Of a stretch of DNA of 64,000 bases, positions 2,757 to 63,380 are shown piece by piece. This stretch comes from Clostridioides sp. (lineage in GTDB: Bacteria; Bacillota; Clostridia; Peptostreptococcales; Peptostreptococcaceae), in NCBI GenBank assembly GCA_031261505.1, contig JAISJN010000003.1, positions 6,141 through 70,140 of the forward strand, in the 5' to 3' direction. The notes beneath the pieces are model-generated. The model did no database searches. It was not told the origin of the DNA and saw only the letters and a list, made by a program, of their open reading frames with translations. Positions within the stretch are counted from its first letter, which is position 1; each line of letters begins with the position of its first letter. The position numbers were made by a program, and so were the translations under genes.

Positions 2757-2865
2757 TAAGTGATTAAATGGTGATTCAACGCTTTCAGTGGGAGATTTGA
2801 CCTCCACTGAAATGAGATTTATGCCCGCCACCTGTAGAGGTGGGGGACATTTATCTCAAGTTATA
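2757..2865 (+). repeat. double-hairpin intergenic repeat, full copy (A)
   Basis: ...AAATGGTGATTCAACGCTTTCAGTGGGAGATTTGACCTCCACTGAAATGAGATTTATGCCCGCCACCTGTAGAGGTGGGGGACATTTATCTCAAGTTATA. It matches 98 of 100 nt of the copy at 32633-32732. Confidence 0.9.
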
Positions 2866-2944
2866 CTACTTTCACAGCTTTACATTTTATCTTGCTTGAA
2901 AAGATTCACGCTACTGTATCTATCGTTCCACCTCTATTTCTAGC

Positions 2945-4150
2945 TTATTTACTTCTAAGCGATTTCATAGCCTTTATCTTCAATGGAAGTGTGAAGAGAT
3001 TTATAAAACCTTCTGCATCCTTGTGGTCGTATAGATCACTTGCTCCGAAAGAAGATATCCCCTGGTCGTATAAGGCGTTTTCTGCAAATATACCAGCTGA
3101 TTTTATATTCCCCTTGTATAACTTTAATTTTACACTACCTGTCACATTTTCCTGTGTGATGTCTACAAATGCTTCTATAGCCTCTCTTAAAGTCGTATAC
3201 CATAGACCATCGTAGATGAGCTCGCTGTATTTAAGAGCTATCAACTGTTTGTAGTGAAGTGTGTCCTTATCTATGGTTGCACTTTCTAATTTATTATGTG
3301 CCTCGTAGAGTATAGTTCCTCCCGGTGTTTCGTATACTCCCCTTGACTTCATTCCAACCAATCTATTTTCTAGTAAATCTATTACGCCTATCCCGTGTTT
3401 CTTACCTAGTGAGTTTACCTTTTTAATCAATTCTACTGGAGCCAATTCCTCACCGTTTACCTTCTTAGGCACTCCTTTTTCAAAGTATATTTCTACGTAT
3501 TCGGCTTCGTCTGGAGCATCTTCAGGATCTATACATTCCTTGTACACGTCTTTTTTATGCTCGTTTGCTAGGTTTTCTATATCCCCGCCCTCTGTCGACA
3601 CATGCCATAGGTTGGCGTCTACTGAGTATATTTTTTCCTTAGTCGCAGTTACTTCTATATTGTGTGCATTTGCGTAGTCTATTGCATCTTCCCTAGACTT
3701 TATATCCCAAATCCTCCAAGGAGCTATTACCTTTATGCTAGGGTCTAAGGCTGCTATCGTAGCCTCGAATCTAACTTGATCGTTTCCCTTACCAGTGCAT
3801 CCGTGGCAGATAAATTTTGCCCCTTCCTTATGCGCTACCTCAACTAATTTTTTAGCTATTATAGGTCTAGCAAGTGATGTCCCCAGTAGATATTTGCCTT
3901 CGTATTTCACCTCTGCCTTGATTGCGCTAAATATTGTAGTCGTTACGAATTCTTCGCTTATATCGTCTACGTACGCTTTTGAAGCTCCACTATTAAGCGC
4001 TTTCTCGTACACATCTTCCATCTTGTCTTCCTGTCCGACGTTACCACATACTGCGATTACCTCGATATCTTCGTAGTTTTCCTTTAACCAAGGTATTATT
4101 ATCGATGTATCTAATCCACCTGAATATGCTAAAACAACTTTTTGTGCCAT
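2945..4150 (-). CDS. argG: argininosuccinate synthase
   Basis: [16 protein letters not shown] (N-type ATP-PPase motif); 401 aa; family-typical throughout. Confidence 0.97.
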
Positions 4151-4176
4151 TGTAATTTCCCCCTTCTATTAATTTA

Positions 4177-4220
4177 CGCCCTCCACCTATATATGTATGG
4201 GACATAAATTTCAAGTTATA
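4177..4220 (+). repeat. degenerate right-half remnant of the intergenic repeat
   Basis: CGCCCTCCACCTATATATGTATGGGACATAAATTTCAAGTTATA versus consensus GCCCGCCACCTGTAGAGGTGGGGGACATTTATCTCAAGTTATA. It lies between the T-box terminator and the argG start. Confidence 0.5.
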
Positions 4221-4314
4221 TTTGTATTTGCTCTTCGACTGAATCGTCGATACGTCGCCCTCTGCAGTAGGGTTTCGTTTTCCTGTTTTCTTCTATGAAT
4301 TTATTTTTAACGTT

Positions 4315-4545
4315 AAAAAAGCCCCTTAGTCAAACGACTAAGAGGCGAATATCCGCGGTACCACTCTAATTGATGGGAGTAATCCCATCATCTCTATCTC
4401 TTAAGGCGAGAATTCCTATCATCATACTTAGTTTCCGATGATCTCCTCCAAAGCTCTCTTCACTGTAGATTTCTCTGCCACTCTTTCACCGAATGTTGGC
4501 TCTCTGTAAGATTCCACTATAGCTACTCTCTTTTTCACAGGATTT
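4315..4545 (-). promoter_or_regulatory. T-box leader (tRNA-sensing riboswitch) controlling argG
   Basis: The minus strand reads AGAGAGUA ... AGAGAG ... GGUGAAAG ... then the conserved AAUUAGAGUGGUACCGCGG. The terminator GCCUCUUAGUCGUUUGACUAAGGGGCUUUUUU follows. Confidence 0.85.
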
Positions 4546-4563
4546 AATTATCATGTTAGAAAT

Positions 4564-4592
4564 ATGATAATTTATTTTACTTATTTTGTCAA
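4564..4592 (-). promoter_or_regulatory. sigma-A-type promoter for the argG T-box leader
   Basis: Minus strand TTGACA, 17 nt spacer, TATCAT, just upstream of Stem I. Confidence 0.55.
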
Positions 4593-4613
4593 CTGAATTT
4601 TTGAAATTAAATT

Positions 4614-4655
4614 GAGAAAGATGTCAATCCACTTTTATGTGGGACATCTTTCTTG
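4614..4655 (-). terminator. hairpin terminator after the histidine kinase gene
   Basis: Minus-strand inverted repeat AGAAAGAUGUCCCAC...GUGGAUUGACAUCUUUCU followed by an A/U-rich tail. The U-run is weak. Confidence 0.4.
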
Positions 4656-4693
4656 TTTTACTCGGTTATACCAAGATATACTTTACCTTTAAT

Positions 4694-6867: not shown

Positions 6868-8247
6868 TTATTTATACATCAATGAAAAATATTCTTTAAT
6901 CATAGGCATGTTGAGATTTAACCTCTTAAGTTCTTCTACGTTGTTAAGTGTCAACATGTATACGTAATGTTCGTTTTCATCAAGAGTGAATCCTTCTCCA
7001 CCTTCGCCCAATACCTGTTTTTGTTTTGAATCGAGGCTGCTCTTATTCTCTACGATTATGCTAAATAAATCCTTGCGCTTAGAGTCGATTGAATCGTAGT
7101 AATAGAACTTATAAGTCGTATAGCTTTGCTTCTTTCCACTTGCAAGTTCCTCTTCCACAATTATATTGCCAGCCAATTTGTTCGGTATCGATACCTTGTA
7201 GTTGTACTTGTAGTTGTAGTATATCTGACTTACAAATACCTTTGTACTGCTGTTTCCACTCCATTTATACCAGCATACATTTGCTTCTACAGCTGATTTA
7301 TACTTCACGTTGTTAGTAGGTATTTCTAAAACTCCGTCCCTGTCAATGTCGGCTATAGGTATATAGTACGGCTTGATTATCTCGTTGTCGTTAAACACCT
7401 TTTCGAGCTGTCCAGTTGTAGATAGGTATAAAATATTCGTCGCGTAATAACTTCCGTTTATAATTGGATAGTCGATGACTACTCCTTTTTTTCGTGGCTG
7501 TTTTGATACGTCTCCATACCTCAAGTACATATCGCTTATATTTTTTACATTTTCGAGCACTGTCGGCTTTTTATAGGTAAGTCCATCCACGAAATTCACT
7601 ATGTTTGCATAAGCCTTGTTAGTCTTTGGATCTAGGTATACGAGGAGTATATCCAGATTATTATCTCCGTTCATATGTCCAGCCATTACTTGTAAATCAG
7701 TGAGTGAATCTTTATTTTCAACCCATTCAGGTACTATGTCGTATAGTTTTTTGATTTTATGGTTATCGAATTCATATACGTACATATTGGTCTTATCCTT
7801 TGTTTTGACAGTTAGCACAATTTCTTTTTTCCCATCGTTTCTCAAATCTAAGAAGTTTGCGTATTCTATTGAATCGCCATCTATCATCTCTTCATCGTCG
7901 TGTGAGTAGATTTCATTCCCCTTGCTCAAAACCAAGAAACCTACTTGATTTGATTTTCCTTCATCTATTGTTTCTAATTTCTTAAATGCCACAACTTCTT
8001 TGACGCCATCTCCATTTAAGTCTACTTGATTTATTTTTCCAACCTCTGTTGAATTAGATGGGAAGGTAAACGAGGTATTTAGAGGCAGCAATTTACTTAT
8101 TCCATCCTCTAGTCTCATTTCTTCCCTATCGTAAGTAGGTCGTATTGCTAGGTTGTCTACCGTTCCAACACTTAGTTTACATCCCGTAGCAATCGCAATG
8201 GTCAATATCGTTATGGCAGCTAAGATAAGTAATTTAAATGCCTTCAT
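6868..8247 (-). CDS. lipoprotein with FG-GAP/VCBS-like Ca-binding repeats, co-oriented with the two-component system
   Basis: Lipobox LTIAIATGC. Repeated DxNxDGxxE-type motifs: DLNGDGVKEVV, DLRNDGKKEIV, NGDNNLDILL, DIDRDGVLEI. Only 15 nt separate it from the response-regulator gene. Confidence 0.7.
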   Translation of the reverse strand: MKAFKLLILAAITILTIAIATGCKLSVGTVDNLAIRPTYDREEMRLEDGISKLLPLNTSFTFPSNSTEVGKINQVDLNGDGVKEVVAFKKLETIDEGKSNQVGFLVLSKGNEIYSHDDEEMIDGDSIEYANFLDLRNDGKKEIVLTVKTKDKTNMYVYEFDNHKIKKLYDIVPEWVENKDSLTDLQVMAGHMNGDNNLDILLVYLDPKTNKAYANIVNFVDGLTYKKPTVLENVKNISDMYLRYGDVSKQPRKKGVVIDYPIINGSYYATNILYLSTTGQLEKVFNDNEIIKPYYIPIADIDRDGVLEIPTNNVKYKSAVEANVCWYKWSGNSSTKVFVSQIYYNYKYNYKVSIPNKLAGNIIVEEELASGKKQSYTTYKFYYYDSIDSKRKDLFSIIVENKSSLDSKQKQVLGEGGEGFTLDENEHYVYMLTLNNVEELKRLNLNMPMIKEYFSLMYK

Positions 8248-9415: not shown

Positions 9416-9704
9416 CTTTCCTCCAAATTTCTATATATCAGACTTCTATATTTCTTCCATTTACTTCATTGATTATTCGATTTTTTCTGCAATTTCAGTA
9501 ATCTAACCTTCGTATCCTTAATTCTATACATCATTTTTATTATAACATTTATAGAGCAGTTTAGGTAATAATTGTCCAAATATCTTAGGTGAATTATCCA
9601 ATTTTAATTGCGATTCAATCATTTAAGTAGAGATACTTCGCTCGTAAATGAAATTTGTCTTCAACAATCTAAACATGGATAATATGTTTCTCAAGTTAAA
9701 GCAA

Positions 9705-9757
9705 AAATCAAAAAGACAAGAGGATATGGTTCCAGATCTCTTGTCTTTTTGATTTTT
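9705..9757 (-). terminator. long-stem bidirectional terminator after the ArsC-family gene
   Basis: AAAATCAAAAAGACAAGAG...CTCTTGTCTTTTTGATTTT, a stem of about 19 bp flanked by A/T runs. Confidence 0.6.
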
Positions 9758-9778
9758 GAATATATTTACTTTGATTTT

Positions 9779-10138
9779 TTATTTTGATTTGAGTAGGACT
9801 TCCTTCCACTGATCCTCTTTAAATCCTAGAAGAACCTTGTCTCCATCTACCAGCATTGGTCTTTTTATGAGCATTCCATCGGTAGAAAGAAGAGCTAGTA
9901 ATTTGTCTACGCTCTCTGTTTTTACGACGTCCTTAAGGCCCATCTCCCTGTACTTCATCCCACTTGTATTGAAAAACTTCTTGATGTCGTATCCACTGCT
10001 CTTATATATAGACTCGAGCTCTTCCTTGGTTGGCGGAACTTCTACCATGTCGATATCGTCGTAAGTAAATCCGTTATCGTCCAACCATTTTTTCGCCTTC
10101 TTAACTGTAGAGCATCTAGAATATCCGTATATTTTCAT
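9779..10138 (-). CDS. ArsC/Spx/YffB-family thioredoxin-fold protein
   Basis: MKIYGYSRCSTVKKAKKWL...LIKRPMLV, 119 aa; classic family signature. Confidence 0.85.
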   Translation of the reverse strand: MKIYGYSRCSTVKKAKKWLDDNGFTYDDIDMVEVPPTKEELESIYKSSGYDIKKFFNTSGMKYREMGLKDVVKTESVDKLLALLSTDGMLIKRPMLVDGDKVLLGFKEDQWKEVLLKSK

Positions 10139-10151
10139 ATTTTCCTCCTGT

Positions 10152-10250
10152 GTTTAAATGTTGATTCAACGCTTTCAGCCTGAAATTTGACCCACACCGA
10201 AATGAGATCTACGCCAGCCACCTATAAGTGTTGAACATTTCTCTCAATAT
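10152..10250 (+). repeat. intergenic repeat, diverged copy (B); its right end supplies the ABC ATPase stop codon
   Basis: GTTTAAATGTTGATTCAACGCTTTCAGCCTGAAATTTGACCCACACCGAAATGAGATCTACGCCAGCCACCTATAAGTGTTGAACATTTCTCTCAATAT. Confidence 0.7.
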
Positions 10251-10930
10251 AGGGTAGAGTCTATTTCGCCTCTCGTTTTGATACTGTCTATTATCCCGTC
10301 CTTTATATTTATCAGTTTATCTGCCACGCTATTTGCAAAGGCGACGTCATGTGTGATAATCAGTATCGTTATACCCTTGTTTTTTAATCTTTCAATTATA
10401 GTTATTACCCTTTTTATCGTTTCTGAATCAAGTGCAGAGGTAGGTTCATCAAAACAAAGTACTTTTGGAAGCATTCCACAGGCTCTAGCTATTGCTACCC
10501 TCTGTTGCTGACCACCTGATAATTCAAATGGATAGGCATTTTCCTTATCCTCTAAATCAACTAATTTCAATAATTCTCTCGCTCTAGAAATCGCTTCTTC
10601 TTTTTTTACACCGAACACATGGATAGGCGCTTCAATTATGTTTTCAAGTACTGACATATGTGGAAATAGGTTGAAATTTTGAAAGACAAGCCCTATTTCT
10701 CCTCTGATTTTCTCCCTATCCTTAGGAGTCCTTACAACCTCGTCCTCTTCTATATATATCTCGCCGCTGTCCTGATCTTCTAGACCGTTTACAATCCTCA
10801 ATATAGTAGTCTTCCCCGCTCCTGATTTTCCAAGCAAGACCCCTGTCTCGCCCTGTCGTAATTCAAAGGAAATATCGTTTAAAACTTTCTTCCCATTGAA
10901 TGATTTATTTATGTTTACTAGCTTTAGCAT
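10244..10930 (-). CDS. amino-acid ABC transporter ATP-binding protein
   Basis: Walker A GKSGAGKTT, signature LSGGQQQRVAIARA, Walker B VLCFDEPTSALD. Confidence 0.94.
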   Translation of the reverse strand: MLKLVNINKSFNGKKVLNDISFELRQGETGVLLGKSGAGKTTILRIVNGLEDQDSGEIYIEEDEVVRTPKDREKIRGEIGLVFQNFNLFPHMSVLENIIEAPIHVFGVKKEEAISRARELLKLVDLEDKENAYPFELSGGQQQRVAIARACGMLPKVLCFDEPTSALDSETIKRVITIIERLKNKGITILIITHDVAFANSVADKLINIKDGIIDSIKTRGEIDSTLY

Positions 10931-10947
10931 GCTTACCTCCTGCTCTC

Positions 10948-11015
10948 CTTAAATGGCGATTGCTTGATTTTGTAGTTTTCCACCTCTGAAATCATGAATC
11001 ACCATCTAAATCTTA
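10948..11015. repeat. palindromic mini-element made of two inverted left ends of the repeat
   Basis: TTAAATGGCGATTGCTTGATTTTG...CTGAAATCATGAATCACCATCTAAA. It sits between the permease stop and the ATPase start. Confidence 0.5.
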
Positions 11016-11624
11016 TTTATAATAAGAGAATTTCTTTTCCAACATATTCAGCAACTGTGTCAAAACGGCTATCATTGCCAGGTAGATAATCCCAGCCTCC
11101 ACTAACGGCATAAGGCTTACCTCTCTATTGGCGGCGATCTGGGCAACCCTCAATATATCGTTTAAGCCGATTATATATACTAGAGAAGTATCCTTCACCA
11201 AGGTTATTATTTCATTAGAAATAGGTGGGAGAATTCTCTTTAAGACTTGAGGGAATATTATTCTTCTGTACATCGTCAATTTACTAAATCCGAGTACCTT
11301 ACAGGCTTCGTTTTGCCCCTTATCTATGGATAGCACTCCACCTCTGAATATTTCTGCAAAGTACGCAGCATAGTTCAGAGTAAATGCGAGAACTGCAGAT
11401 TCAAATCTGTCAAATACTACCCCCACTAATGGGAGCCCAAAATAGATGATAATTATCTGAAGCAATAATGGAGTACCCCTCATTACTAGTATATACAAGC
11501 TGGTAATAGAACTTATAATTTTATTACCGGATAATTTCAAAGACGTTACGACAATACCAAGGGGTATAGAAAATACTAGGGTCAAAGCAAATAACGAAAC
11601 TACTATTTTAAATCCTTCAAACAT
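11013..11624 (-). CDS. amino-acid ABC transporter permease (HisM/GlnP type)
   Basis: EAA-type loop and polar amino-acid permease fold. I moved the start to the ATG at 11624, which follows GAAGGTGGG. The track ORF begins at TTG 11642. Confidence 0.9.
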   Translation of the reverse strand: MFEGFKIVVSLFALTLVFSIPLGIVVTSLKLSGNKIISSITSLYILVMRGTPLLLQIIIIYFGLPLVGVVFDRFESAVLAFTLNYAAYFAEIFRGGVLSIDKGQNEACKVLGFSKLTMYRRIIFPQVLKRILPPISNEIITLVKDTSLVYIIGLNDILRVAQIAANREVSLMPLVEAGIIYLAMIAVLTQLLNMLEKKFSYYK

Positions 11625-11659
11625 CTTCCCACCTTCTTTCAAGTTTTCTTTCCAATTTT

Positions 11660-11748
11660 CAAATATTCATTGCATTATGTGGGATCTCTACTCCACTTAA
11701 ATGAGATCGTCACCACCACTAAGTGGTGGTTGACTTATTCTCAATTAA
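11660..11748 (+). repeat. intergenic repeat, diverged copy (C)
   Basis: ...GTGGGATCTCTACTCCACTTAAATGAGATCGTCACCACCACTAAGTGGTGGTTGACTTATTCTCAATTAATG. Both hairpins are retained with different stem sequences. Confidence 0.6.
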
Positions 11749-11753
11749 TGTCT

Positions 11754-12530
11754 CTATTTAAACCATTTTTTATATATTGTATCGTAGGTTCCGTCGTCCT
11801 TCATTTCTTTCAAGGCTCCATCTATCTTATCGGCTAGTTCCTTGTTCTTTTTAGCAGTACCTACAGCGTAGTCTTCAAGTCCAAGGTTGTCGTCTAATAC
11901 CTTGTAATCGTCAGTTCCCTTTTGACTGATATAGTATCTTATAAGCACTTCATCACCTACTACCGCAGTCGTTCTTCCAACTTCCAAATCTCTAAGCGCC
12001 TTGTCAAATGTATCGTATAATACCGGTTTACCGTCTTTTAAACTCGTTTGGAATTCCTTATCTGCCTCTATTGCCTCTACTGACGAAGAACCTTGTTGAG
12101 TTCCAACTTCCTTGCCTTTTAAATCTATCTTAGAGTCTATGTTTGAATTTTTCATAGCTACTATTATCTGCTTGTTTTGTAAATACGGTTCTGTGAAGTT
12201 TACCTGTTTTTTTCTTTCCTCTGTCACTGTATACCCATTCCAAAGTACATCCACATTTCCGGCATTTAGTTCTGTTTCCTTCATAGACCAGTCTATCGCT
12301 TGGAACTTAACTTCTTTATCTATTCTCTTAAAAGCTTCTTTTGCCAAATCCACGTCAAATCCTACTGTTTCACCTTTGTCATCTAAAAATCCCATAGGTA
12401 CGAATGTGTTGTCGAATCCGACTACGACGGTTTTATCGTCCTTTCCCTTGTCTTGATTTGCTGTCGTCGAACATCCAGCCATTCCTGTCACAAGTACTAG
12501 AATTGTGAGTAGCATTCCTAATTTTTTCAT
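11754..12530 (-). CDS. amino-acid ABC transporter substrate-binding lipoprotein
   Basis: Lipobox LVTGMAGCS. Family-3 SBP features: GFDVDLAKE, WNGYTVTEERK. Confidence 0.9.
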   Translation of the reverse strand: MKKLGMLLTILVLVTGMAGCSTTANQDKGKDDKTVVVGFDNTFVPMGFLDDKGETVGFDVDLAKEAFKRIDKEVKFQAIDWSMKETELNAGNVDVLWNGYTVTEERKKQVNFTEPYLQNKQIIVAMKNSNIDSKIDLKGKEVGTQQGSSSVEAIEADKEFQTSLKDGKPVLYDTFDKALRDLEVGRTTAVVGDEVLIRYYISQKGTDDYKVLDDNLGLEDYAVGTAKKNKELADKIDGALKEMKDDGTYDTIYKKWFK

Positions 12531-12744: not shown

Positions 12745-13012
12745 AAAAACTCCCGTCATCTAGCTGCTTAGCTAGAGGACGGGAGTATACTCTCGTGGTT
12801 CCACCTCTTTTTATTAATGCCTCACGACACTAACCTCATCGAGTACGATTTTATTTATACTCTAGCACTGTAACGGGTGCAAGGATACCGGAAACCTCCT
12901 AATAAGACTAGGTCCTTTCAGAGTCCTGCTCAGAGATGTGTTCAAAGTAGTATCTAATGCTCCTCTCACCGACCGGAAACTCTCTGGTTAAGATATCTTA
13001 CTCCTACTATTT
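12745..13012 (-). promoter_or_regulatory. T-box leader controlling the ABC transporter operon; probable His (CAC) specifier
   Basis: The minus strand reads GAUGAGAAAUAGUA ... AGAGAG ... GGUGAGAG ... GAA-CAC-A ... AGAGGUGGAACCACGAG. The terminator CUCCCGUCCUCUAGCUAAGCAGCUAGAUGACGGGAGUUUUUU follows. Confidence 0.85.
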
Positions 13013-13206
13013 CTCATCAACGCATTTGTTGTTTGTATTCAATATTTTTCTGTATTAAATATATAATATATCATTCTGATAATAATGTCAAGAAGTATTT
13101 TTAAAATTTTCTGATACAGTTTTAGAGCTATCCACTGTCAGGCAATCAGTATTTGAACGCTACCTCGAATTATCAAATCGCAGCTCATTGAAACATATCT
13201 GATTGT

Positions 13207-14523
13207 TTAATTCCAGGGAACTACCTCGACCTCTCCATAAGACCTAGGCTCTAACCTGTTTGAGTACTCTCCCCTGTATCCTATCACATAGAGCATCACA
13301 AGTTCCACATACCTTGTCCCTATAGAAATTATATTCCAAGTATCCTCTACTTCGAGCCTTGCTTTTTTTGGTTTTCTGCTAGGATGAATTATAGTATTTC
13401 TATAGAAAATCAATAAGTCTACTCCATCGTCAAATTTATCGTTGATCCAGTCGTCAAAAAATACAAGTTCTTCTTTTCCGTAATGTATCTTGCATACGTC
13501 TAGGAGCATCCTTATATTCTTCGATGTGACGTTCTTGTCAAATTCTTCGTCGCTCATTATCTTTCCCTGTTCGACTAATGCAATGTATGCTAGGGTTTCA
13601 AGCGCTACCTGAATCGATACTACACTATTTTCAAGTGTGATACTGTTTAGCGATTCAATGTACCAGTTATTTACATTTCTTATTGCCTTTCCAAAATAGT
13701 CATCCTCTAGCTTCTTACACATCAAGCCAAGGTATTTCTCTATATTGTGGTGGTTTGAAATCGTATCAGTCCAATTGGGTACGAATTTAAACGGAGAAAT
13801 CTCTGGCTCACACCATATCTGGTAGACCTGTCTGTCAGACCTATATCCCTTAGCAAAGCAGAACCCTACATACCTTCCACAGGCAAAACTTAATGCAGCG
13901 GATAGATCGTCGAGCAGACTCACGACGTTAGAACTCTTTAATCCTTCTCCATCTTTCCTGAATATCCTGCCCATATGAGTTATTATCATACCTGATTTAT
14001 CCTTCAACTCCTCGTATAGTTCTTTTCTAAAATCTTCCCTCTTATCTAAGATGACGTTGTAGTCTCCTAACTCAAATTCCATTCGTCCAGCGTACAAAGC
14101 CGCTTCGGATTTTATTAGCTTGCCCGTATACTTATTCATGTTTATAATACCGAAATCAACGTAATCTACAATTGAATTCTTAGATCTAATAAGGTTTTCA
14201 TTTATGTATCCAGATACCGAAAATTCACTTATGTTTTTTATACTTATGGACGATATCTTAAATCCATGTACCTCCAGAATTGCATTGTCCAAACTCAAAT
14301 CCATACCGCCTATGTCGACGTCGTCTATTGGCGTTGCAGTAAGTATATTCGCCTCGAAATTTATTGTTACTGGAGGTGTCATCTTGAGATACACCAAGCC
14401 GTTACATTTGTATTTTTTATCTAAATAAACGCAAAATCGCCCCTTGTGAACGATTAAATCTTCACATACATCGTACCTGTACAATTCTGATGAAATAGGA
14501 CTGTTAAACAAAGTTCTCACCAC
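13207..14523 (-). CDS. hypothetical protein; beta-rich N-terminal region plus helical C-terminal region with a HEPN-like RNxxxH motif
   Basis: 438-aa ORF with FYRNTIIHPSRK near the C-terminus. I recognise no other family signature. It is a stand-alone gene with its own flanking AT-rich spacers. Confidence 0.55.
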   Translation of the reverse strand: MVRTLFNSPISSELYRYDVCEDLIVHKGRFCVYLDKKYKCNGLVYLKMTPPVTINFEANILTATPIDDVDIGGMDLSLDNAILEVHGFKISSISIKNISEFSVSGYINENLIRSKNSIVDYVDFGIINMNKYTGKLIKSEAALYAGRMEFELGDYNVILDKREDFRKELYEELKDKSGMIITHMGRIFRKDGEGLKSSNVVSLLDDLSAALSFACGRYVGFCFAKGYRSDRQVYQIWCEPEISPFKFVPNWTDTISNHHNIEKYLGLMCKKLEDDYFGKAIRNVNNWYIESLNSITLENSVVSIQVALETLAYIALVEQGKIMSDEEFDKNVTSKNIRMLLDVCKIHYGKEELVFFDDWINDKFDDGVDLLIFYRNTIIHPSRKPKKARLEVEDTWNIISIGTRYVELVMLYVIGYRGEYSNRLEPRSYGEVEVVPWN

Positions 14524-44120: not shown

Positions 44121-44210
44121 TGTTTTATCTCGTTTCCGACTTGATTTTTAATTATCTTATCTGAACCTGTGATTTAAATATCTATCTGAGTTCATTCTCG
44201 ATTTCAATCC

Positions 44211-46659: not shown

Positions 46660-46681
46660 TTTCCACCCCTATGTATTCTAA

Positions 46682-46711: not shown

Positions 46712-46836
46712 TATATATTCATTTTCATATTTATTAGCTGACACATTTTTAAATGGCTATCGCATATTAAGGATACACCTAGACTAAAATGCATATCTAT
46801 CTTATCCACATAGCAAATTCATAAATATCCATCGAC

Positions 46837-47973: not shown

Positions 47974-47987
47974 GATTTATCCTCCCC

Positions 47988-48081
47988 TTAGATATTGATT
48001 GTGTGGTGTGGAATTTTTTCCACTCAAATGAGATTTATGCCCGCCACCTATAGAGGTGGGTGACATTTGTCTCAAGTTATA
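47988..48081 (+). repeat. intergenic repeat (I) between the YceG-like gene and telA
   Basis: TTAGATATTGATTGTGTGGTGTGGAATTTTTTCCACTCAAATGAGATTTATGCCCGCCACCTATAGAGGTGGGTGACATTTGTCTCAAGTTATA. Confidence 0.82.
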
Positions 48082-48086
48082 ATATT

Positions 48087-49682: not shown

Positions 49683-49783
49683 AGATTACAACCTATTTCT
49701 GTTATCTTTGAGGCAAGAACTTATATATTTTATTATATAACTATTTTATTTTTATGTCTTGTATTATTTTAATTTTCTTAATC

Positions 49784-52531
49784 CTATGCTTCTTCTTTGT
49801 TTGATAATATTCTTATTATAAACTTAACCAACTCGTTCACTACTATTACAGATATCGCTGTACCAAGTACTTTTAACCACGTATTTACATCTAGAGCAAC
49901 TGAGTTGAAGAAACTTTTAAATACCTGTGTGAACAGTACCTGCGCTAGACCAGTTGCAAGTATTATCTCTACCGCAAGCCTGTTCTTAGTGAAGTTTGGC
50001 AATATACTATCAGATCCAAACTCTCTACAGTTGAATGCATTAAACAACGCACTGAATGCGAATAAGGCAAATAAAACTGTTCCCTTTGATGCATCCGATA
50101 CTTCAAGGAAGTTGAAAGATGATTGTAATAGGATTAGAGCCGTGATATACAGGGCATTTAATACTATTGTGTACGCCATTTTTCTATTAATGATATTTGC
50201 TTCCCTATCTACTGGTTTTCTGTTGAGTACGTGTTCTCTAACTGGTTCCAGACCAAGTGCTAATGCTGGAGGTCCATCCATGATTATATTTACCCATAGT
50301 AGCTGAATAGTAGTAAATGGCATATCCTGACCTAGTATCTGAGATGCTATTGCAACCAAGAATGCTATGATATTTACTGTGAACTGGAATTGGAGGAATC
50401 TCTGGAAGTTGTCATAGATACCTCTACCCCATTTGATACCTTGAACTATAGTGCTGAAACTATCATCTGTAAGTATGATATCTGCTGCGCTCTTAGTTAC
50501 CTCTGTACCACTTATCCCCATTGCAATACCTACATCTGCCTTGGATAATGCAGGGGCGTCGTTTATACCGTCACCAGTAACCGCAACGACCTCTCCGTCT
50601 TTTTGTAGGGCTCTTACTATTCTCATCTTTGTCTCTGGCTTATTTCTAGCTACGACTCCGATACTTCTTATCTCTTCTTCCAACTCGTTGTCTGAAAGTG
50701 TATCGATGTAAGTTGCCTCTACAGCCCTCATTCCTTCTGGAAGTAGACCTAGTTCTTCTCCTATCGCCTTAGCTGTGATTATATTGTCACCTGTAAGCAT
50801 CTTGACCGCTACACCAGCGTGTCTAGCTTTCTCTACAGCGTCTAACACGTCCACTCTAAGTGGGTCTCTGATTCCTACGAATCCACTGAATACTAGGTTG
50901 TTCTCTAATAGACCGATGTTTACGAAATCGTCCTCTGTGCTTATCGCTGCTTCTTCGTCTGCTATTGTTACATCCCTATAGGCAAATCCCAAGGTTCTCA
51001 TAGATTTTACCTGTAGTTTTTTTATTTCTTTTAATACCGCTTCTTTTACATTTATAGTCATAGGAACGATTTCGTCACCTTTTTGTACATATGAGCATAG
51101 ATCTAGTATTACCTCTGGTGCTCCCTTTGTAAGTAGGATGTACTTGCCGTTGTCTTCGTACATAGATGACATCCTCTTAGTTTCTGACGAGAATGGACTC
51201 TGTGCGACTACTTCCGACTGAGCTCTTACGCTTCTGTAGTTCTTGTCGGCGTTTAATAAAAGCAAGGCGCATTCTGTAGCACTTCCGAGATACTTGATTC
51301 CATCAGCTGATTTCTCTATATCTGCAGTCGAGTTAAGTATACAGTTTTCAATGAAGTAACTGTTTGAGCTATTTATATTTACACCCTTGTCTTCACCGTC
51401 TACATGTACAAATTCTACAGTCATCCTGTTTTGTGTGAGTGTACCTGTCTTATCTGAACAGATGACAGACACTGAACCGATTGTCTCACAAGCTTCTTTC
51501 TTGGTAACAAGTGCATTGATATTTGCCATCTTCTGCATAGTGATAGCGAGTGTCATGTTTACCATTGTAGGCAACCCTTCTGGCACTGCTGCGACTATCA
51601 AGGCAACACAGACTGTAAATGCTGTCTTTGCTGGTCCTATAGATTCCATAAACGGCATAAATCCTGATACATCTAGGTTTAATACACCCTTTCTCACCAT
51701 CTGAATTATCATGAATATAAACAGCAATCCAGCTATAGCACTTGAAATTTGAGATACAAACGCTCCTAGATTTCCAAGTTTAGTCTGTAGTGGAGTCTGC
51801 TCTTCAGATCCTGTAAGATTACCTGCTATCTGACCCATTTCACTGGCGTCACCGATAGATGTTACAACCAGTTGACCTCTACCATAGGCTACAAGGGTAC
51901 CACCAAATACCATGTTTATCTGTTTCGCAGGTATTGGATCCTGTATCATTATTTCTCCTCTGGCGTCGATTCTCTCTTCGTCTATTAACACATCGCTCTT
52001 TTTAGAAACGTCATCCGATTCCCCTGTGAGCATATCTTCTCTTATTTTTAGGTTTACACTTTCTATAAGTCTACCATCGGCTGGAACCATATCGCCAGTT
52101 TCTATATGTACTATATCTCCTGGTACTAGTTCGCTTTTTGATACTTGACGCACCTTGCCGTCTCTGAGTGCCCTTACCTCTATGTTTTCAGTCATCTTTG
52201 ACAATGCGTCGGCTGCCTTCTTGGATTTTCCCTCGGTAATCATTCCTATTGCTATACCGATGATTATTGCTGCTATAATACCTATAGCGTCGTGTACCTC
52301 TCCTATAAGTGCACTCACCAAAGCTGCAATTATAAGTATCACAATCATAGGCTCTAAAAGTGCATCTTTTAACTTATCGAAGAAGCTCTCCTCTTCCTTT
52401 GGTGTGAACTCGTTGAGGCCGTACTTTTCTCTTCTCGTCTTGATTTCGCCATCGTCTAACCCGCACTCCGGATCGACCGATAACTCATCCAGGACTTCAT
52501 TCACTTTACTATTATAATACTTCATTATCAA
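49784..52531 (-). CDS. P-type ATPase, Ca2+-transporting (P2) type
   Basis: CSDKTGTLT, PEGLP (TM4), TGDN, GDGINDAPAL, NIIMDGPPA (TM6); 915 aa. Confidence 0.92.
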   Translation of the reverse strand: MIMKYYNSKVNEVLDELSVDPECGLDDGEIKTRREKYGLNEFTPKEEESFFDKLKDALLEPMIVILIIAALVSALIGEVHDAIGIIAAIIIGIAIGMITEGKSKKAADALSKMTENIEVRALRDGKVRQVSKSELVPGDIVHIETGDMVPADGRLIESVNLKIREDMLTGESDDVSKKSDVLIDEERIDARGEIMIQDPIPAKQINMVFGGTLVAYGRGQLVVTSIGDASEMGQIAGNLTGSEEQTPLQTKLGNLGAFVSQISSAIAGLLFIFMIIQMVRKGVLNLDVSGFMPFMESIGPAKTAFTVCVALIVAAVPEGLPTMVNMTLAITMQKMANINALVTKKEACETIGSVSVICSDKTGTLTQNRMTVEFVHVDGEDKGVNINSSNSYFIENCILNSTADIEKSADGIKYLGSATECALLLLNADKNYRSVRAQSEVVAQSPFSSETKRMSSMYEDNGKYILLTKGAPEVILDLCSYVQKGDEIVPMTINVKEAVLKEIKKLQVKSMRTLGFAYRDVTIADEEAAISTEDDFVNIGLLENNLVFSGFVGIRDPLRVDVLDAVEKARHAGVAVKMLTGDNIITAKAIGEELGLLPEGMRAVEATYIDTLSDNELEEEIRSIGVVARNKPETKMRIVRALQKDGEVVAVTGDGINDAPALSKADVGIAMGISGTEVTKSAADIILTDDSFSTIVQGIKWGRGIYDNFQRFLQFQFTVNIIAFLVAIASQILGQDMPFTTIQLLWVNIIMDGPPALALGLEPVREHVLNRKPVDREANIINRKMAYTIVLNALYITALILLQSSFNFLEVSDASKGTVLFALFAFSALFNAFNCREFGSDSILPNFTKNRLAVEIILATGLAQVLFTQVFKSFFNSVALDVNTWLKVLGTAISVIVVNELVKFIIRILSNKEEA

Positions 52532-52561
52532 TATCCTTCTCTTTTTTTAGTCTTATTTAAA

Positions 52562-53179
52562 TTAGAAACTTATAGAGCTCAAATTTCTGAGTACTTCTGT
52601 CAAGCTTGCAAATTTATATCCTTCACCTATCGCTTCAAACTCCCAGCTTCCATTTTTTCTAAAGATACAGCCTACTACTAGAGTTGTCTTGTCAGCATAA
52701 TTATCAGATAGATTGTACTTGACTATCTCTTTTCCGCTCTTTTGATCCACAACTCTTATAAATGCATTCTTTATCATTCCGAAATCTTGGTTTCTCTTTA
52801 TGCAGTCGTATATATTTACTATGAATAGAAGTTTTTCTATTCTGCCAGGTACGCTGTCAAGGTCTACGAGTATCTGTTCATCGTCGCCAGCGCCATCTCC
52901 TGTAAGGTTGTCACCAGTATGAATTACCGAATTATCTCTGCTCTTTAGGTTAGCAAAGTATATAAAATCTTTTACATTACCTAAGGCTCCATTTGAATCT
53001 AACATGAACACCGATGCATCACAGTCTATATCCGGTGCACCCATCCCAACTAATTTTTTGAAAAATCCTCCGCTAGATGCTGAAACTGGATCCCAGCCTA
53101 GTCCAACCAATATTTTACTTAGACCTGGATTTGACTTCCTAAGGTCTATCTTCTCACCTTTAGCTAAATTAATAGACAT
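52562..53179 (-). CDS. terD: TerD-family stress protein (longer paralogue)
   Basis: LAKGEKIDL...GLGWD...GDNLTGDGAGDDEQI. Confidence 0.9.
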   Translation of the reverse strand: MSINLAKGEKIDLRKSNPGLSKILVGLGWDPVSASSGGFFKKLVGMGAPDIDCDASVFMLDSNGALGNVKDFIYFANLKSRDNSVIHTGDNLTGDGAGDDEQILVDLDSVPGRIEKLLFIVNIYDCIKRNQDFGMIKNAFIRVVDQKSGKEIVKYNLSDNYADKTTLVVGCIFRKNGSWEFEAIGEGYKFASLTEVLRNLSSISF

Positions 53180-53196
53180 ACTTTCCCTCCTGACTC

Positions 53197-53775
53197 CTAT
53201 ACGCTAAGTCCATAGTTTCTGCAAAGTGATTCTAGGCCACCTTCGAAACCTGCACCCACTGCGCTAAATTTCCATTCTCCATTGTATTTATATATCTCAC
53301 AAACGGTTATTGCTGTCTCTACGCTGAATTCTTCGCCTAGGTCATATCTTAATATCTCTTCATCATCTGCTGTATTCAACACTCTGACATAAGAATTTGA
53401 AACCTGTCCAAAGTTCTGTCTTCTCTCCTCAGCCTCATAAATTGTAACTGTTACCGCTATTCTCTCTATATGGTTAGGCATTGCTGGAAAGTCTACTATT
53501 ATTTCCTCGTCATCTCCATCGCCTTCTCCTGTCCTGTTGTCTCCAAGATGTTCTACTGCACCTGAGGTGTGTTTCAGATTATTGTAGAATATAAAGTCTT
53601 CATCATGCTCAACCCTCTTTGAATTTCCAACCATGAAAACACTTACGTCTAGGTCGAAATCGTTACCGCTATCAAAAGAGTTCGTATCCCATCCAAGTCC
53701 TAATTTTATCTTCTTCAGTCCTGGATTACCTTTAGTTAAATCAATTTTTTGACCTTTTTTTAAAACTATCGCCAT
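53197..53775 (-). CDS. terD: TerD-family stress protein
   Basis: LKKGQKIDL...GLGWD...[15 protein letters not shown]. Confidence 0.93.
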
Positions 53776-53831
53776 TAGTTCTCCCCCTATCCTTTTTCTG
53801 TATCGCCTTTGTATATGATACTATTTTTATT

Positions 53832-54410
53832 CTATAGATTTATGCCAAAATTGCCGCAAAGGGCCTCTAGTCCACCTTCAAATCCCGATCCTAGGGCGTT
53901 AAATTTCCATTCGCTGCCGTGTCTGTATATATCTGCGACTACTACAGCTGTCTCAATGCTGAAATCTTCGCCTAGTTCGTATTTTATGAGTTCTTCATTT
54001 GTATCGTTGTTTACTATTCTTATAAATGAATTTTCTACCTGACCGAAGTTCTGTCTTCTTGAAACTGCATCGTGTATAGTCACAGTAAATGAAATCTTGT
54101 CTATTGTAGATGGTATCTTTGACAAGTCTATTAAAAGTTGTTCATCGTCTCCCTCACCTTCACCAGTCCTGTTGTCACCTAGATGTTCTATTGCACCTGA
54201 GGTGTGTTTTAGATTATTGTAGAATATGAAATCTCCATCGTTTGTAACCTTTCCATTTGATCCAGTTAAAAATGCCGCTGAATCCAAATCGAAGTCTGAG
54301 CCTCCATCGTATTTATTTGTGTCCCAACCAAGACCTACTAGTATATTTTTTAGACCTGGGTTAGATTTAGTCAAGTCTACCTTTTGTCCTTTTGCCAAAG
54401 TTATTGCCAT
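53832..54410 (-). CDS. terD: TerD-family stress protein
   Basis: LAKGQKVDL...GLGWD...[15 protein letters not shown]. Confidence 0.93.
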
Positions 54411-58826: not shown

Positions 58827-59189
58827 TTAATACCAGTCATCGCAGCCTCTATGGCATCTGCGTCTGCAGTCCCAGTCTCTATGATGTTTGTGTCCACAGC
58901 TACAGTCATTATAACATCCGTCGTATTCATAGTCATTGTACTCATTAGGATCGAACATGTTTCTGTATGAATAACTATGACAACCATTTTTATGTCTTGG
59001 TTTTGGTTCTGGTTTAACGAATATTGGTCTGACACCATGATGTCCACAAACTGTTACATGACCGCTGCCTGGATGACAGTGTTGAGTTTTGCTCCAGTGG
59101 AAGTTGCGAGCAGTGCTGTCACATGGATCACTACAAGAATTGTTACAAGAGTTGTTGCAAGAATTGTTACAAAATTTATTACAAGCCAT
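58827..59189 (-). CDS. Cys/His-rich small protein with a triple CNNS repeat
   Basis: MACNKFCNNSCNNSCNNSCSDPC...CHPGSGH...CGHH...CSCGHKHHRDWDCRRRCHRGC. ATG 59189 lies 9 nt after AAAGGGGA, and a hairpin terminator lies downstream. Confidence 0.65.
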   Translation of the reverse strand: MACNKFCNNSCNNSCNNSCSDPCDSTARNFHWSKTQHCHPGSGHVTVCGHHGVRPIFVKPEPKPRHKNGCHSYSYRNMFDPNEYNDYEYDGCYNDCSCGHKHHRDWDCRRRCHRGCDDWY

Positions 59190-59296
59190 ATATTTCAATC
59201 CCCTTTATTATACAAATCTGAGTGAGCTTTTCACTCACACTATATTGTATGTTCTTTTGCCAAAAAGGTTCCTAAAACCGCGACTTTTTTTGTTAA

Positions 59297-60879: not shown

Positions 60880-61010
60880 TCCCTTCTATCTACTATGACC
60901 TAATCTATTATCCCCATAATATACATTTCTATTTTTATTATCAATATATTTTACTTAAATATATCCGATTTTATTCATAATAATTCTCAACTGACTAAAG
61001 TCAGGGGCTT

Positions 61011-61108
61011 TTTGAATTCTGATTCAACTATTTCAGTTGGAAATTCATCCACTGAAATTCTAATTATGCCCCCACCTGTAGAGGTGGGGGCATAATTAGC
61101 AAGTTAAA
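61011..61108 (+). repeat. intergenic repeat (J)
   Basis: TTTGAATTCTGATTCAACTATTTCAGTTGGAAATTCATCCACTGAAATTCTAATTATGCCCCCACCTGTAGAGGTGGGGGCATAATTAGCAAGTTAAAA. Confidence 0.78.
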
Positions 61109-61148
61109 ATCTATCTGTATGAACTTAACTATACTTCTCTATACTAAA

Positions 61149-62105
61149 CTATCTTTTTATCTCTGCACTCTTTTCGAGCTCAGATATGTGTTTAGCGTAT
61201 TTTTCATTTGTTACAGCTGCTATGATCTTATTTCTCGCATCGTGGAAACTTATTTCTTTGTCTTTCTTATCTGTTATCTTTACGATGTGATATCCAAAGC
61301 TTGTTTCAAATACCTTTGAAACATCTCCTCTAGCTACGTTAAATACATGTTTAGAGAACTCAGCATCGTATTTGTCTGGAGTAAAGTATCCAAGTTCTCC
61401 ACCGTTTTTACCAGTTGCCTTGTCATCTGAACTAGACTTTGCGACATCGGCAAATACAGCTCCGTTTTTTATATCGTTTAAAAGCTTGTCAGCCTTTTCT
61501 TTTGATTTAGATTTTTCCTCGCTGCTCACTGGATTGCCGTCGTCGTCTAAGGTAGATACTAGTATCTGTGATGCACTTACCTCAGGTACTGTGAAGTCAT
61601 CCTTGTGTTTAGAGTAGTAATCCTGTATATCTGCATCGCTTATTTCGAGCTTGTCTTCAAAATCTTTTTTGTATTTTTCTAAGACCAAGTCTTTTTCAAT
61701 AGTCTTTTTCAAATAGGCATCGTCTACTCCAGCCTTGGCTAGAATTTTCTTGTAACCAGGATTTTGAGCCACTGCATCTACTAAAGTAGAGTATTTTGTC
61801 TCTACCTCGTCCTTGCTCACCTTTATACCCTTAGCTGTAGCTGACTGATATACGATTTCGTTGTCGACCATAAATGATAATATATTCTCGTCGCGTTTCT
61901 TTTTTCCGTCTTTATCTAAATTCTCATCCTGCTGCTCAAACGATTGACCTCTTAGGTATTCATTTGTAGCAGATAAGACTGATTTTGTCTTATTGTAATC
62001 GTCCTTAGTTATGTTGGTATCGTTGACTTTGGCTAGGTTACTTCCACAGCCAGTCAAAGAAATTACCATCATTCCTAAGATCCCTATATATAATCCTTTT
62101 TTCAC
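61149..62105 (-). CDS. prsA: PrsA-type foldase lipoprotein (parvulin PPIase)
   Basis: Lipobox ISLTGCG; the PPIC domain ends FGYHIVKITDK. Confidence 0.88.
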   Translation of the reverse strand: MKKGLYIGILGMMVISLTGCGSNLAKVNDTNITKDDYNKTKSVLSATNEYLRGQSFEQQDENLDKDGKKKRDENILSFMVDNEIVYQSATAKGIKVSKDEVETKYSTLVDAVAQNPGYKKILAKAGVDDAYLKKTIEKDLVLEKYKKDFEDKLEISDADIQDYYSKHKDDFTVPEVSASQILVSTLDDDGNPVSSEEKSKSKEKADKLLNDIKNGAVFADVAKSSSDDKATGKNGGELGYFTPDKYDAEFSKHVFNVARGDVSKVFETSFGYHIVKITDKKDKEISFHDARNKIIAAVTNEKYAKHISELEKSAEIKR

Positions 62106-62135
62106 AAATATTCACCTCAACTATTCTTTAGTTTT

Positions 62136-62984
62136 TTACTGTAAGTTTCTAAGCCAATAGTTACGTGGAACTTCATTTTGTCCTATCGCTTTGAATTCGA
62201 ACCCTTCAGATGCCAAGAATTTAATCATAGGTTCTAGGGCGTCTAAACTCTGTTTTTTCTCATGGAATAAGACAACTATATTATCCTTGCCTACAGATTG
62301 TGTCTTTACTGCATCTAATATCTGTGCAGAATTAGATTTCCAATCCAAAGTATCTATATCCCAGTCCCAGATTTTATAGCCGGCATTTACCATTGCATCG
62401 TATGACGCCTGTGGGGTATTCGGTTTACTTCCATAAGGTATTCTTATTACCTTTGAAGTTTTACCTGTTAGATCAGTGAATATCTTACTACATTGGTCAA
62501 ATTCTTCTTTTGCCGCAGATGGTGATGTGTATAGCTTGTGTATATCGTGAGACATACTGTGGAATCCAGCTGTACTATCGCTATTTGCTATATTCTTTGC
62601 CTGTTGTGGAAACGCCTTCATATTAGGACCTATCATAAAGAAAGATGCTTTTGCATTGTTTCTCTTTAATATATCTAGCATCTGGTCTGTAAATTTCGAT
62701 GGACCATCGTCAATCGTCAAATATACGACCTTTCCCGATGTCTTACCTGGTCCTTTATTTATTTCTTCCGAAGCATCTGATACAATGCTCGTTATTGTGT
62801 TAGTTGACAGTTCTATATCTCTTGAAGCCTCTTCAGCTGAAGCATTTGAACTAAAGACTCTTATTCCTGCAAATACAGCTGCTACACATACTACCAGTAT
62901 ACATACCACTAATGCTATCTTTCCACCGTTAACTGTCTTTTTGTTTCTACTGTTGCTGTAGCTGCGTCCTCTTTTCTTACTCAT
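62136..62984 (-). CDS. polysaccharide deacetylase (NodB-domain) membrane-anchored protein
   Basis: YLTIDDGP (motif 1) and HSMSH (motif 2), with an N-terminal TM anchor. ATG 62984 follows GGGAGGGA. The track ORF begins at 63002. Confidence 0.88.
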   Translation of the reverse strand: MSKKRGRSYSNSRNKKTVNGGKIALVVCILVVCVAAVFAGIRVFSSNASAEEASRDIELSTNTITSIVSDASEEINKGPGKTSGKVVYLTIDDGPSKFTDQMLDILKRNNAKASFFMIGPNMKAFPQQAKNIANSDSTAGFHSMSHDIHKLYTSPSAAKEEFDQCSKIFTDLTGKTSKVIRIPYGSKPNTPQASYDAMVNAGYKIWDWDIDTLDWKSNSAQILDAVKTQSVGKDNIVVLFHEKKQSLDALEPMIKFLASEGFEFKAIGQNEVPRNYWLRNLQ

Positions 62985-63273
62985 ACTATCCCTCCCATTC
63001 ATAACTCTGTTACAGATTTACGCTGCAAGCACTCTTAGACGGGTTGCCCCTGTCGCCAAATCTAATGTATTTTTTGCTCACAACCACACCGATTAAGAAT
63101 TAATTCTATCTTAACCGCCCATTCTTATATTAAACTATAAATCGAGGATTTTTGCAACGTTATATAAAAAAATAGGAGCATTCGACATTATTCTATCCTA
63201 CTTATTCTAATGGTTCTATCTTATTTATTATATTTCCTTAAGATTTATTACGTTTCCTTAAGTTTAAACTAAG

Positions 63274-63380
63274 TTATATAACTTGAGAAAAATACCCCCA
63301 ACCTCCTATAAAGTCAGCGGTCGAAATTCTCATTCCTAGGATAGTAAAATCTCCAACAAGATAATCAAGGCTTAAAATTT
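63274..63380 (-). repeat. intergenic repeat, inverted and decayed (K)
   Basis: TTATATAACTTGAGAAAAATACCCCCAACCTCCTATAAAGTCAGCGGTCGAAATTCTCATTCCTAGGATAGTAAAATCTCC... Confidence 0.55.

Follow-up and report, generated by a model that had tools for sequence, protein, structure and literature searches.

A survey of 40 bacterial genomes recognised 92 families of stem-loop repeats, most of them undescribed (Cozzuto et al. 2008, PMC2267715). The BOX elements of Streptococcus pneumoniae are composite repeats of the form boxA-boxB(n)-boxC, the BOX, RUP and SPRITE repeats behave similarly, and effects on mRNA have been reported for REP, BOX and ERIC (PMC3049150). The present analysis concerns a 64,000-nt stretch of the Clostridioides sp. 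assembly GCA_031261505.1 (contig JAISJN010000003.1, positions 6,141 to 70,140 of the forward strand), hereafter the window, within which a two-hairpin intergenic unit of ~105 nt recurs many times. The unit is probably a lineage-specific, non-autonomous, structured interspersed repeat of the REP/REPIN/BOX kind, which would spread selfishly and affect mRNA incidentally; the family has no name, and the kind to which it belongs, the small stem-loop repeats common in bacteria, is already known.

Copies were located with an nhmmer profile, seeded with six copies and taken through one iteration, and with a covariance model (R1) built from 15 aligned copies, the two sets being identical. Together they define 15 full-length copies of about 95-109 nt each (E 1e-20 to 2e-7), 11 on the plus and four on the minus strand, plus at least eight fragments (see the table below). 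The dense repeat family proposed in an initial annotation of the same letters is thereby borne out: all 14 of the copies that it had listed as full were recovered within a few bases, a fifteenth at 9599-9703 having been overlooked, and the fragments that it had placed at 4177, 10948, 19903, 20851 and 22390 are genuine remnants, some of them weak. Fragments at 63751-63796, 4603-4664 (-), 39611-39648 and 20943-20962 (-) are additional to that list. Exact-seed repeat finding clustered the unit found at 2757-2870 with other copies (families D1-D6), and the decamer TCTCAAGTTA, allowing at most one mismatch, occurs 17 times as against 8.4 +/- 2.7 times in shuffled sequence. Spacing between copies is irregular (0.1 to 13 kb), and pairwise identity ranges from 93% (2760 versus 32627, in the model alignment including short flanks) to ~40%, with a median of 54%. 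The former two copies, which lie 30 kb apart in unrelated contexts, share 98% ungapped identity over 102 nt. Most genes of the window lie on the minus strand, and the majority (plus) orientation is antisense to most of the neighbouring genes.

Read from left to right, the unit comprises a left arm, (TT)AAATGnTGATTCAACGC, a first hairpin of 12 bp (H1), an abutting, interrupted second hairpin (H2) and the right end TCTCAAGTTA. H2 is a stem of ~18-20 bp formed by two inverted 20-mers, its arms of 20-21 nt being 80-100% complementary and 4-6 nt apart; the second hairpin that had been proposed is thus present, but was drawn too short, the arms being TGAGATTTATGCCCGCCACC and GGTGGGGGACATTTATCTCA, each of ~20 nt and 80% complementary. 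In the copy at 32627-32735 the left arm reads (TT)AAATGGTGATTCAACGC, the 12-bp H1 reads TTTCAGTGGGAG-ATTTGA-CTCCCACTGAAA, H2 follows with zero spacer as TGAGAT..ATGCCC.CCACCT-GTAG-AGGTGG.GGGCAT..ATCTCA, and the right end is AGTTA. H1 (CAGTGGGAG/CTCCCACTG) and H2 (CCGCCACC/GGTGGGGG) are unrelated in sequence. Folding energies of intact copies are -41 to -48 kcal/mol, and when the best-preserved copies were folded the z-scores were -6.4 to -8.7 on either strand.

Two subfamilies are distinguished by their left arms, which are either long (TGATTCAACGCTTTCAG) or short (TGATTGYGTG), the short form being without the 5' half of the outer H1 stem. The modules also occur apart, as H2 alone (4168-4213 and 63751-63796), as left arm plus H1 alone (10945) or as ends only (20852-20962 and 39611), and in one place three units run head to tail (30531-30863, units beginning at 30531, 30620 and 30760), the first and second being joined by a single TCTCAAGTTA|AAT junction. 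The usual ends are ..TTA|AAT on the left and ..GTTA| on the right, with TTA on the left in about two thirds of copies and the GTTA terminus likewise in about two thirds. The claim that both ends carry the same decamer holds at head-to-tail or remnant junctions (30531, 30620, 19913 and, in part, 32627), but not elsewhere. In plus-oriented copies (e.g., 32633-32730) one reading frame is free of stop codons across the whole element (LNGDSTLSVGDLTPTEMRFMPATCRGGGHLSQVI), and spurious open reading frames (ORFs), 50-56 aa in length, overlap with three of the copies; no protein sharing common words with the peptide LNGDSTLSVGDLTPTEMRFMPATCRGGGHLSQVI was present among 5.8 billion.

Covariation was measured on two alignments, one structure-blind (MAFFT) and one guided by the model, with results that agree. 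Standard pairs occupied 79-80% of cells, compared with 74% in column shuffles (0 of 500 as high) and 37-53% in a control with the partner slid by 1-3 columns; double-sided changes were present at 14-15 of 29-30 pairs, a number matched by 2-14 of 500 shuffles, and the covariation score was 0.20-0.23 as opposed to 0.08-0.12 when the partner was slid. The compensatory change previously read from the differing stems is therefore real, and moderate, but it does not seem to amount to maintenance at each locus, since pairing decays with divergence: the more a copy has diverged at unpaired positions, the smaller its paired fraction (Spearman 0.51, p = 0.05), old copies having 48-62% of their pairs left. 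G-T wobble cells (33) did not significantly exceed A-C cells (22; p = 0.18), so that no RNA strand is singled out. Because the paired fraction falls with divergence, the fold seems to be required when copies form and then to be left to decay, unlike that of a host RNA which is functional at each locus.

These data bear directly on the possibility that the units are host-selected cis-acting RNA elements, namely intercistronic or 3'-untranslated-region hairpins that make upstream cistrons more stable, flag sites of processing or attenuate read-through. Compensatory changes and folds that are very stable on either strand are what such elements would display, but the decay of pairing with copy age, which has brought several copies down to 48-62% of pairs, and the lack of a significant excess of G-U over A-C mismatches both speak against it, and the placement of the copies divides in the same manner.

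As had been claimed for every copy, all are intergenic: genes contain none of them, in a window that is 83% coding and 17% intergenic. Together the copies cover 1,540 nt, or 14% of 10.9 kb of intergenic DNA, and are present in 12 of the 38 spacers of at least 60 nt. They are wedged tightly between stop codons and ribosome-binding sites, several of them occupying an entire spacer, and those at 11655 and 28739 lie 0-1 nt from a stop codon. Three copies provide the stop codon of the upstream gene: that of ORF 10244-10930 is the TGA within TTGAGA of the copy at 10150, that of ORF 30909-31349 is a TAA, the terminal TTA of the copy at 31342 read on the other strand, and that of ORF 38462-39469 is a TAG, the terminal CTA of the copy at 38368 on the other strand. 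Stop-codon donation as first proposed thus stands at 10244 and 31347, with 38462 now added, the 11013 case falling within a weak fragment. For the minus-strand gene 29784-30569, the longest ORF call starts at a TTG inside the copy at 30531-30619, its first ~13 codons being repeat; the true start is probably further downstream, and repeats can therefore mislead start-codon prediction.

One run of such placements is in the operon at 9599-12530, which encodes a solute-binding protein (SBP; 11754-12530), a permease (11013-11642), an ABC ATPase (10244-10930) and an ArsC-like protein (9779-10138), and in which a copy or fragment is present in all of the intercistronic spacers and at the 3' end. The layout resembles that of REP in malEFG and hisJQMP, where a comparable intercistronic arrangement is found. 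That all the spacers of this operon are occupied, that many copies lie exactly between co-directional genes, and that the commoner orientation puts the less terminator-like strand into mRNA all favour host-selected RNA elements. However, copies occur in both orientations, some lie in 5' regions or between divergent genes (30531-30863), relatives sharing the same operons are without the element, and the flanking genes are functionally unrelated, all of which makes a primary role as host RNA unlikely.

Transcription signals gave no indication that the copies are terminators or genes in their own right. Between 28.5 and 48.4 kb, 10 terminator-like sites were found with 8.9 expected, an absence of enrichment, and the two of these that fall in copies are both on the plus strand, opposite to the flanking genes. 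A GC-rich stem plus U tract was not picked out on the transcribed strand, and an intrinsic terminator or SPRITE-like identity was rejected. Promoter-like motifs likewise showed no enrichment at the copies. That each unit might be an independently transcribed member of a small-RNA gene family is very improbable: the folds of ~100 nt are stable and conserved, as such genes would require, but no consistent promoter-like hexamers accompany the copies, most are without a canonical terminator on either strand, they overlap the stop codons and ribosome-binding sites of flanking genes, many are truncated or decayed, and none matches an Rfam family.

Integron attC sites, whether in a cassette array or a CALIN, were considered on account of the ATTCAAC in the left arm of 5/15 copies, which fits RYYYAAC; the copies are also ~100-nt repeats with imperfect palindromes just 3' of stop codons. 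Nevertheless, GTTRRRY is present at the right end in 0/15 copies, orientation is mixed with spacing as irregular as 0.1-13 kb, the flanked genes are syntenic housekeeping genes as in relatives, and the window contains no integrase, leaving the attC reading scarcely credible. It was rejected on the core-site tests together with the context.

With regard to the host and its relatives, the ArgG encoded in the window shares 86% identity with the Clostridioides difficile protein and 84% with the Peptacetobacter one, its best non-self match among 5.8 billion proteins is 87% identical, and it is known from two contigs only; GC content is 36% in the window, compared with 29-31% in the nearest relatives. 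Because its ArgG is no more than 87% identical to anything else, the host is, judging by sequence, an uncultured member of the Peptostreptococcaceae related to Clostridioides. The Logan assembly of SRR14710919 contains the same sequence, 100% identical to the window, and inside the copy at 2760-2868, the shared core of which (2794-2835) is unassembled, two of its contigs (L086 and L081) break off, at 2793 and 2836. Breaks of this type inside a sequence are the usual signature of multi-copy DNA in de Bruijn assembly, and this one is the sole, indirect indication in favour of the hundreds of copies genome-wide that the initial annotation had projected.

Outside this lineage the element was not encountered. 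Exact scan patterns, each of which matches 4-5 of the copies in the window, gave 0 matches in 185,579 GTDB species genomes, 0 in JGI metagenomes (two independent patterns) and 0 in viral contigs, and the best copy, run through blastn, matched no plasmid or phage. The nhmmer profile found no copies in 1.38 Mb around the argG genes of 80 relatives, and none in the contigs of the closest relatives (ArgG 84-87% identical). From the T-box terminator to the argG start, the spacer (4150-4338) is ~55 nt longer than its counterparts in two relatives (L082:7722-7885 and L085:9830-10025), and the extra ~55 nt, which include the H2 fragment, are missing from both; a repeat module thus sits inside the regulated 5' leader of argG. 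At Rfam gathering thresholds no copy had a match (best sub-threshold score 25 bits against a threshold of 60), in keeping with the initial view that no named family could be recognised, and the literature library searched yielded no described stem-loop repeat family for Peptostreptococcaceae or Clostridia and no report of RAYT/REPIN in Firmicutes.

A selfish, mobile origin is most likely because the copies span a wide spectrum of ages, old ones decay, modules, deletions and tandems occur, relatives are without the element and its copies are confined to intergenic DNA. By this account, copies would spread through the chromosome via a trans-acting factor encoded outside the window, inserting at or next to AT-rich sites containing TTA or TAA in short intergenic spacers, with new copies often landing right behind an existing one and so giving rise to head-to-tail tandems. 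The hairpins are probably needed for the spread of the element, in that active lineages would retain pairing by compensatory changes and inserted copies would thereafter decay neutrally. Insertion at or beside a stop codon would regenerate the stop; TTA being TAA on the other strand, this would explain the closeness of the copies to gene ends. Most copies lie within or at the ends of transcription units, and would therefore place stable hairpins in mRNAs, where, by analogy with REP (as in malEFG), BOX and ERIC, 3'-end protection, uneven expression of operons or occlusion of a neighbouring ribosome-binding site are plausible. Such effects on mRNA would be side effects and not the reason for the existence of the elements.

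A number of points weigh against a mobile repeat of this description. The census covers one region, the 64-kb window; only one young pair of copies was seen, and gene conversion or recombination could also explain so recent a spread; the orientation split (11 to 4) does not reach significance (p = 0.12); and TTA is so nearly invariant at both ends that a target-site duplication is indistinguishable from conserved termini. Three well-preserved copies had no terminal inverted repeats (TIRs), their inverted repeats being confined to the arms of H1 and H2, and domain searches of the ORFs in the window revealed no transposase, integrase or Y1/RAYT domain, as had already been supposed of the transposase.

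More specifically, the element might derive from a single-stranded DNA transposon, either of the IS200/IS605 type (PATE-like) or mobilised by a RAYT (REPIN-like), with a Y1 HUH transposase encoded elsewhere that recognises the hairpins and inserts 3' of ..TTA without duplication. The absence of TIRs coupled with prominent hairpins near both ends would accord with this, as would an H2 that is a REPIN-like inverted pair of 20-mers and also occurs alone (family D2). TTA on the left flank of about two thirds of copies, in combination with the GTTA terminus, would explain the single-junction tandems, and the majority orientation follows one replication strand (negative GC skew; 11 versus 4). On the other hand, H1 is unlike H2, in contrast to IS608-type ends, whose left and right hairpins resemble each other, the window has no Y1 transposase gene, the strand bias falls short of significance, and the ends would be explained just as well by a DDE enzyme that duplicates the 3-bp TTA. 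The TTA ends and single-junction tandems are equally compatible with a 3-bp TTA duplication and with single-strand insertion 3' of ..TTA. The lack of TIRs and the REPIN-like H2 lean towards the single-strand model, whereas an H1 that differs from H2 and the absence of the enzyme from the window count against it; overall, this particular derivation appears rather unlikely.

A bolder proposition, which we regard as decidedly improbable, is that the element represents a new type of small-element mobility in Clostridia, in which a transposase or recombinase hitherto unconnected with repeats of this sort in Bacillota would recognise a TIR-less two-hairpin unit in its folded form, as single-stranded DNA or RNA; the unit would be directed to TAA/TTA where genes end, with regeneration of stops, and would in some copies have been domesticated as an intercistronic RNA-stability element.

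Coordinates, strands and scores for the full copies and fragments of the preferred reading, a lineage-specific selfish repeat, are as follows.

Table 1. Copies and fragments of the repeat unit in the 64-kb window (R1, covariance model; D numbers, exact-seed repeat families).
Position	Strand	Feature	Score or identity	Structure and context
2760-2868	+	Full copy, long-left-arm subfamily	R1 116 bits, E 9e-20	76 nt 3' of argG stop codon; 28/29 pairs standard or G-T
4141-4223	+	H2-only fragment, core 4168-4213	R1 E 0.007; nhmmer E 1e-7	Between T-box leader and argG ribosome-binding site
4603-4664	-	Degenerate H2/right-end fragment, weak	nhmmer E 1.3e-3; R1 E 1.4	Adjoins histidine-kinase stop codon
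9599-9703	+	Full, decayed copy	R1 60 bits, E 6e-9	59% of pairs intact; 75 nt downstream of ArsC-like gene
10150-10256	+	Full copy	R1 77 bits	Occupies ABC ATPase/ArsC-like spacer; 13-nt overlap with end of ORF 10244-10930; left end 11 nt upstream of next gene's start codon, ribosome-binding site between
10945-11024	+	Left arm + H1 fragment	nhmmer E 3e-4; R1 E 0.24	Between permease and ATPase genes
11655-11753	+	Full copy, short-left-arm subfamily	R1 52 bits, E 2e-7	Occupies SBP/permease spacer; 0 nt from upstream stop codon
19899-19987	+	Right-end/left-end junction fragment (GGGCATAAATCTCAAGTTAAATGGTTATTCAAC) + decayed H2	D10, 79% over 38 nt; R1 E 2.5	
20852-20962	both	End-fragment cluster		GATATCTTTCTCAAGTTAAATCCTGATT..GGATATCTTTCTCA on +, TCTCAAGTTAAA on -; exact decamers at 20860 (+) and 20948 (-)
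22385-22422	+	Truncated copy: short-type left arm TTTAAATATTGATTGCGTGGTG + ATTATGTC	R1 E 3.5	
28739-28844	-	Full copy, minority orientation	R1 75 bits, E 9e-12	Occupies 122-nt spacer of two minus-strand genes
30531-30619	+	First tandem unit, short-left-arm subfamily	R1 58 bits	Preceded by right-end remnant 30517-30537
30620-30726	+	Second tandem unit, long left arm	R1 105 bits, E 1.5e-17	TCTCAAGTTA junction common with first unit
30760-30863	+	Third, decayed unit	R1 65 bits	Same divergent intergenic region
31342-31438	-	Copy without left arm	R1 65 bits; D9	Between convergent genes
32627-32735	+	Best-preserved full copy	R1 121 bits, E 1e-20	Between two minus-strand genes; 29/29 Watson-Crick pairs; fold -48 kcal/mol, z = -7
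38368-38469	+	Full copy, short left arm	R1 71 bits	~170 nt upstream of tRNA-Leu
39611-39648	+	Right-end fragment (ACTCAAGTTAAAG)	D12, 74% over 38 nt	One-mismatch decamer at 39621
39861-39955	-	Copy with H1 mostly deleted, minority orientation	R1 57 bits, E 3e-8	7 nt 3' of antiporter stop codon
47984-48084	+	Full copy, short left arm	R1 90 bits, E 1e-14	Occupies 113-nt YceG-like/TelA spacer; 2 nt from stop codon; ribosome-binding site abuts left end
61008-61111	+	Full copy	R1 79 bits	H2 stem of 18 bp fully paired, several changes being compensatory; fold -46 kcal/mol, z = -8.3; inverted repeat 100% complementary
63274-63379	-	Full, partly decayed copy	R1 66 bits, E 4e-10	Upstream of polysaccharide deacetylase gene
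63751-63796	+	Isolated H2-like module (CCCACCCATCTGTGAAGGTGGGTG)	D2, 63%; nhmmer E 6e-5	

In all other respects the window is ordinary chromosome with a uniformly negative GC skew, carrying argG, two-component systems, an amino-acid ABC transporter, thioredoxin and its reductase, a fused acyl-CoA dehydratase activase, a ter-like cluster, a P-type ATPase and a cysteine synthase; the RlmL/response regulator/histidine kinase/argG segment is syntenic with relatives, and copies flank such housekeeping genes. T-box leaders precede argG (4338-4547, minus strand) and the amino-acid ABC transporter operon (12772-13029, minus strand), and a lysine riboswitch (41862-42035, minus strand) lies upstream of the NhaC-family antiporter gene 39963-41714, all three exceeding their Rfam gathering thresholds. 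The solitary tRNA-Leu (anticodon TAG) near the copy at 38368-38469 occupies 38116-38199 on the minus strand, ~170 nt away.

The ter-like stress cluster (42110-54410) encodes TelA, StiP, PRTase_2/TRSP, a TIM-barrel C-C bond lyase and a YceG_bac protein, together with three tandem TerD paralogues (52562-54410) which also surfaced as DNA repeat family D5; the copy at 47984 is one repeat within this cluster, between the YceG-like and TelA genes. The minus-strand ORF 15074-19591 encodes a protein of 1505 aa with two acyl-CoA dehydratase activase (BcrAD/BadFG-type ATPase) domains and a long C-terminal region, a fusion typical of anaerobic amino-acid fermenters. Three further minus-strand ORFs had faint or no family assignments: 13207-14523 (438 aa) had no Pfam match, 6868-8247 encodes a lipoprotein-like protein of 459 aa with a weak FG-GAP match only, and 58827-59198 a Cys/His-rich protein of 123 aa with NNSC repeats.

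In practical terms, the family fragments short-read assemblies of the host lineage, gives rise to small spurious ORFs and displaces the apparent ends of genes; it would also offer a ready marker for strain typing. It adds an example from Clostridia to the stem-loop repeat families, and, with copies wedged so closely between stop codons and ribosome-binding sites, it is a candidate system in which to study the effects of insertion on operon expression. General concepts are unchanged by it unless the mobilising enzyme proves to be new; that enzyme or a domesticated RNA role, if new, would add to its significance.

Set beside described systems, the element shares with terminators and SPRITE-like elements a GC-rich stem followed, in one orientation, by a moderately T-rich tail, and a position near gene 3' ends, but in most copies the T-tailed strand is not the mRNA strand. 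It resembles the classical MITEs (miniature transposable elements with inverted repeats), namely RUP, Correia/NEMIS and ERIC, in size, density, intergenic location, the occasional provision of stop codons and non-coding character. It differs from them in having no TIRs, no demonstrable duplication of TA or another target and no identified parent insertion sequence, and its outermost ends do not pair as those of a strict MITE would; consequently the REP/MITE-like label initially attached to it is apt for a dense, intergenic, two-hairpin repeat, but not in the strict MITE sense, since TIRs are absent. As in the PATEs of IS200/IS605, subterminal hairpins are present and TIRs absent, but H1 and H2 are unalike.

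The unit fits the definition of the stem-loop families of Cozzuto et al. in being repeated, intergenic and endowed with a common predicted secondary structure, although this host lineage was not included in their survey (PMC2267715) and the element matches no collection searched. With the REP/REPIN/BIME elements of Enterobacteria and Pseudomonas, which are mobilised by RAYTs, it has in common an H2 composed of short imperfect palindromes arranged as an inverted pair of 20-mers, giving a long imperfect hairpin that also occurs alone. Further parallels are the location of copies between co-transcribed genes and at 3' ends, their clusters and tandems, and, by analogy, likely effects on mRNA stability; the difference lies in its composite nature, a second, unrelated hairpin and conserved unpaired arms being added. 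No sequence relationship to BOX is evident in a comparison made by description and not against the boxA, boxB and boxC sequences, and the element consists of two abutting, independent hairpins, whereas in BOX the A and C modules pair around B; BOX is, moreover, reported to have TIR-like ends resembling ISSpn2, unlike the TIR-less element. Both, however, are intergenic repeats of 100-200 nt in low-GC Gram-positive genomes, with modules that occur singly or in varying number, and both are rich in predicted stem-loops, are transcribed together with the genes beside them, carry an ORF through the unit and encode no transposase.

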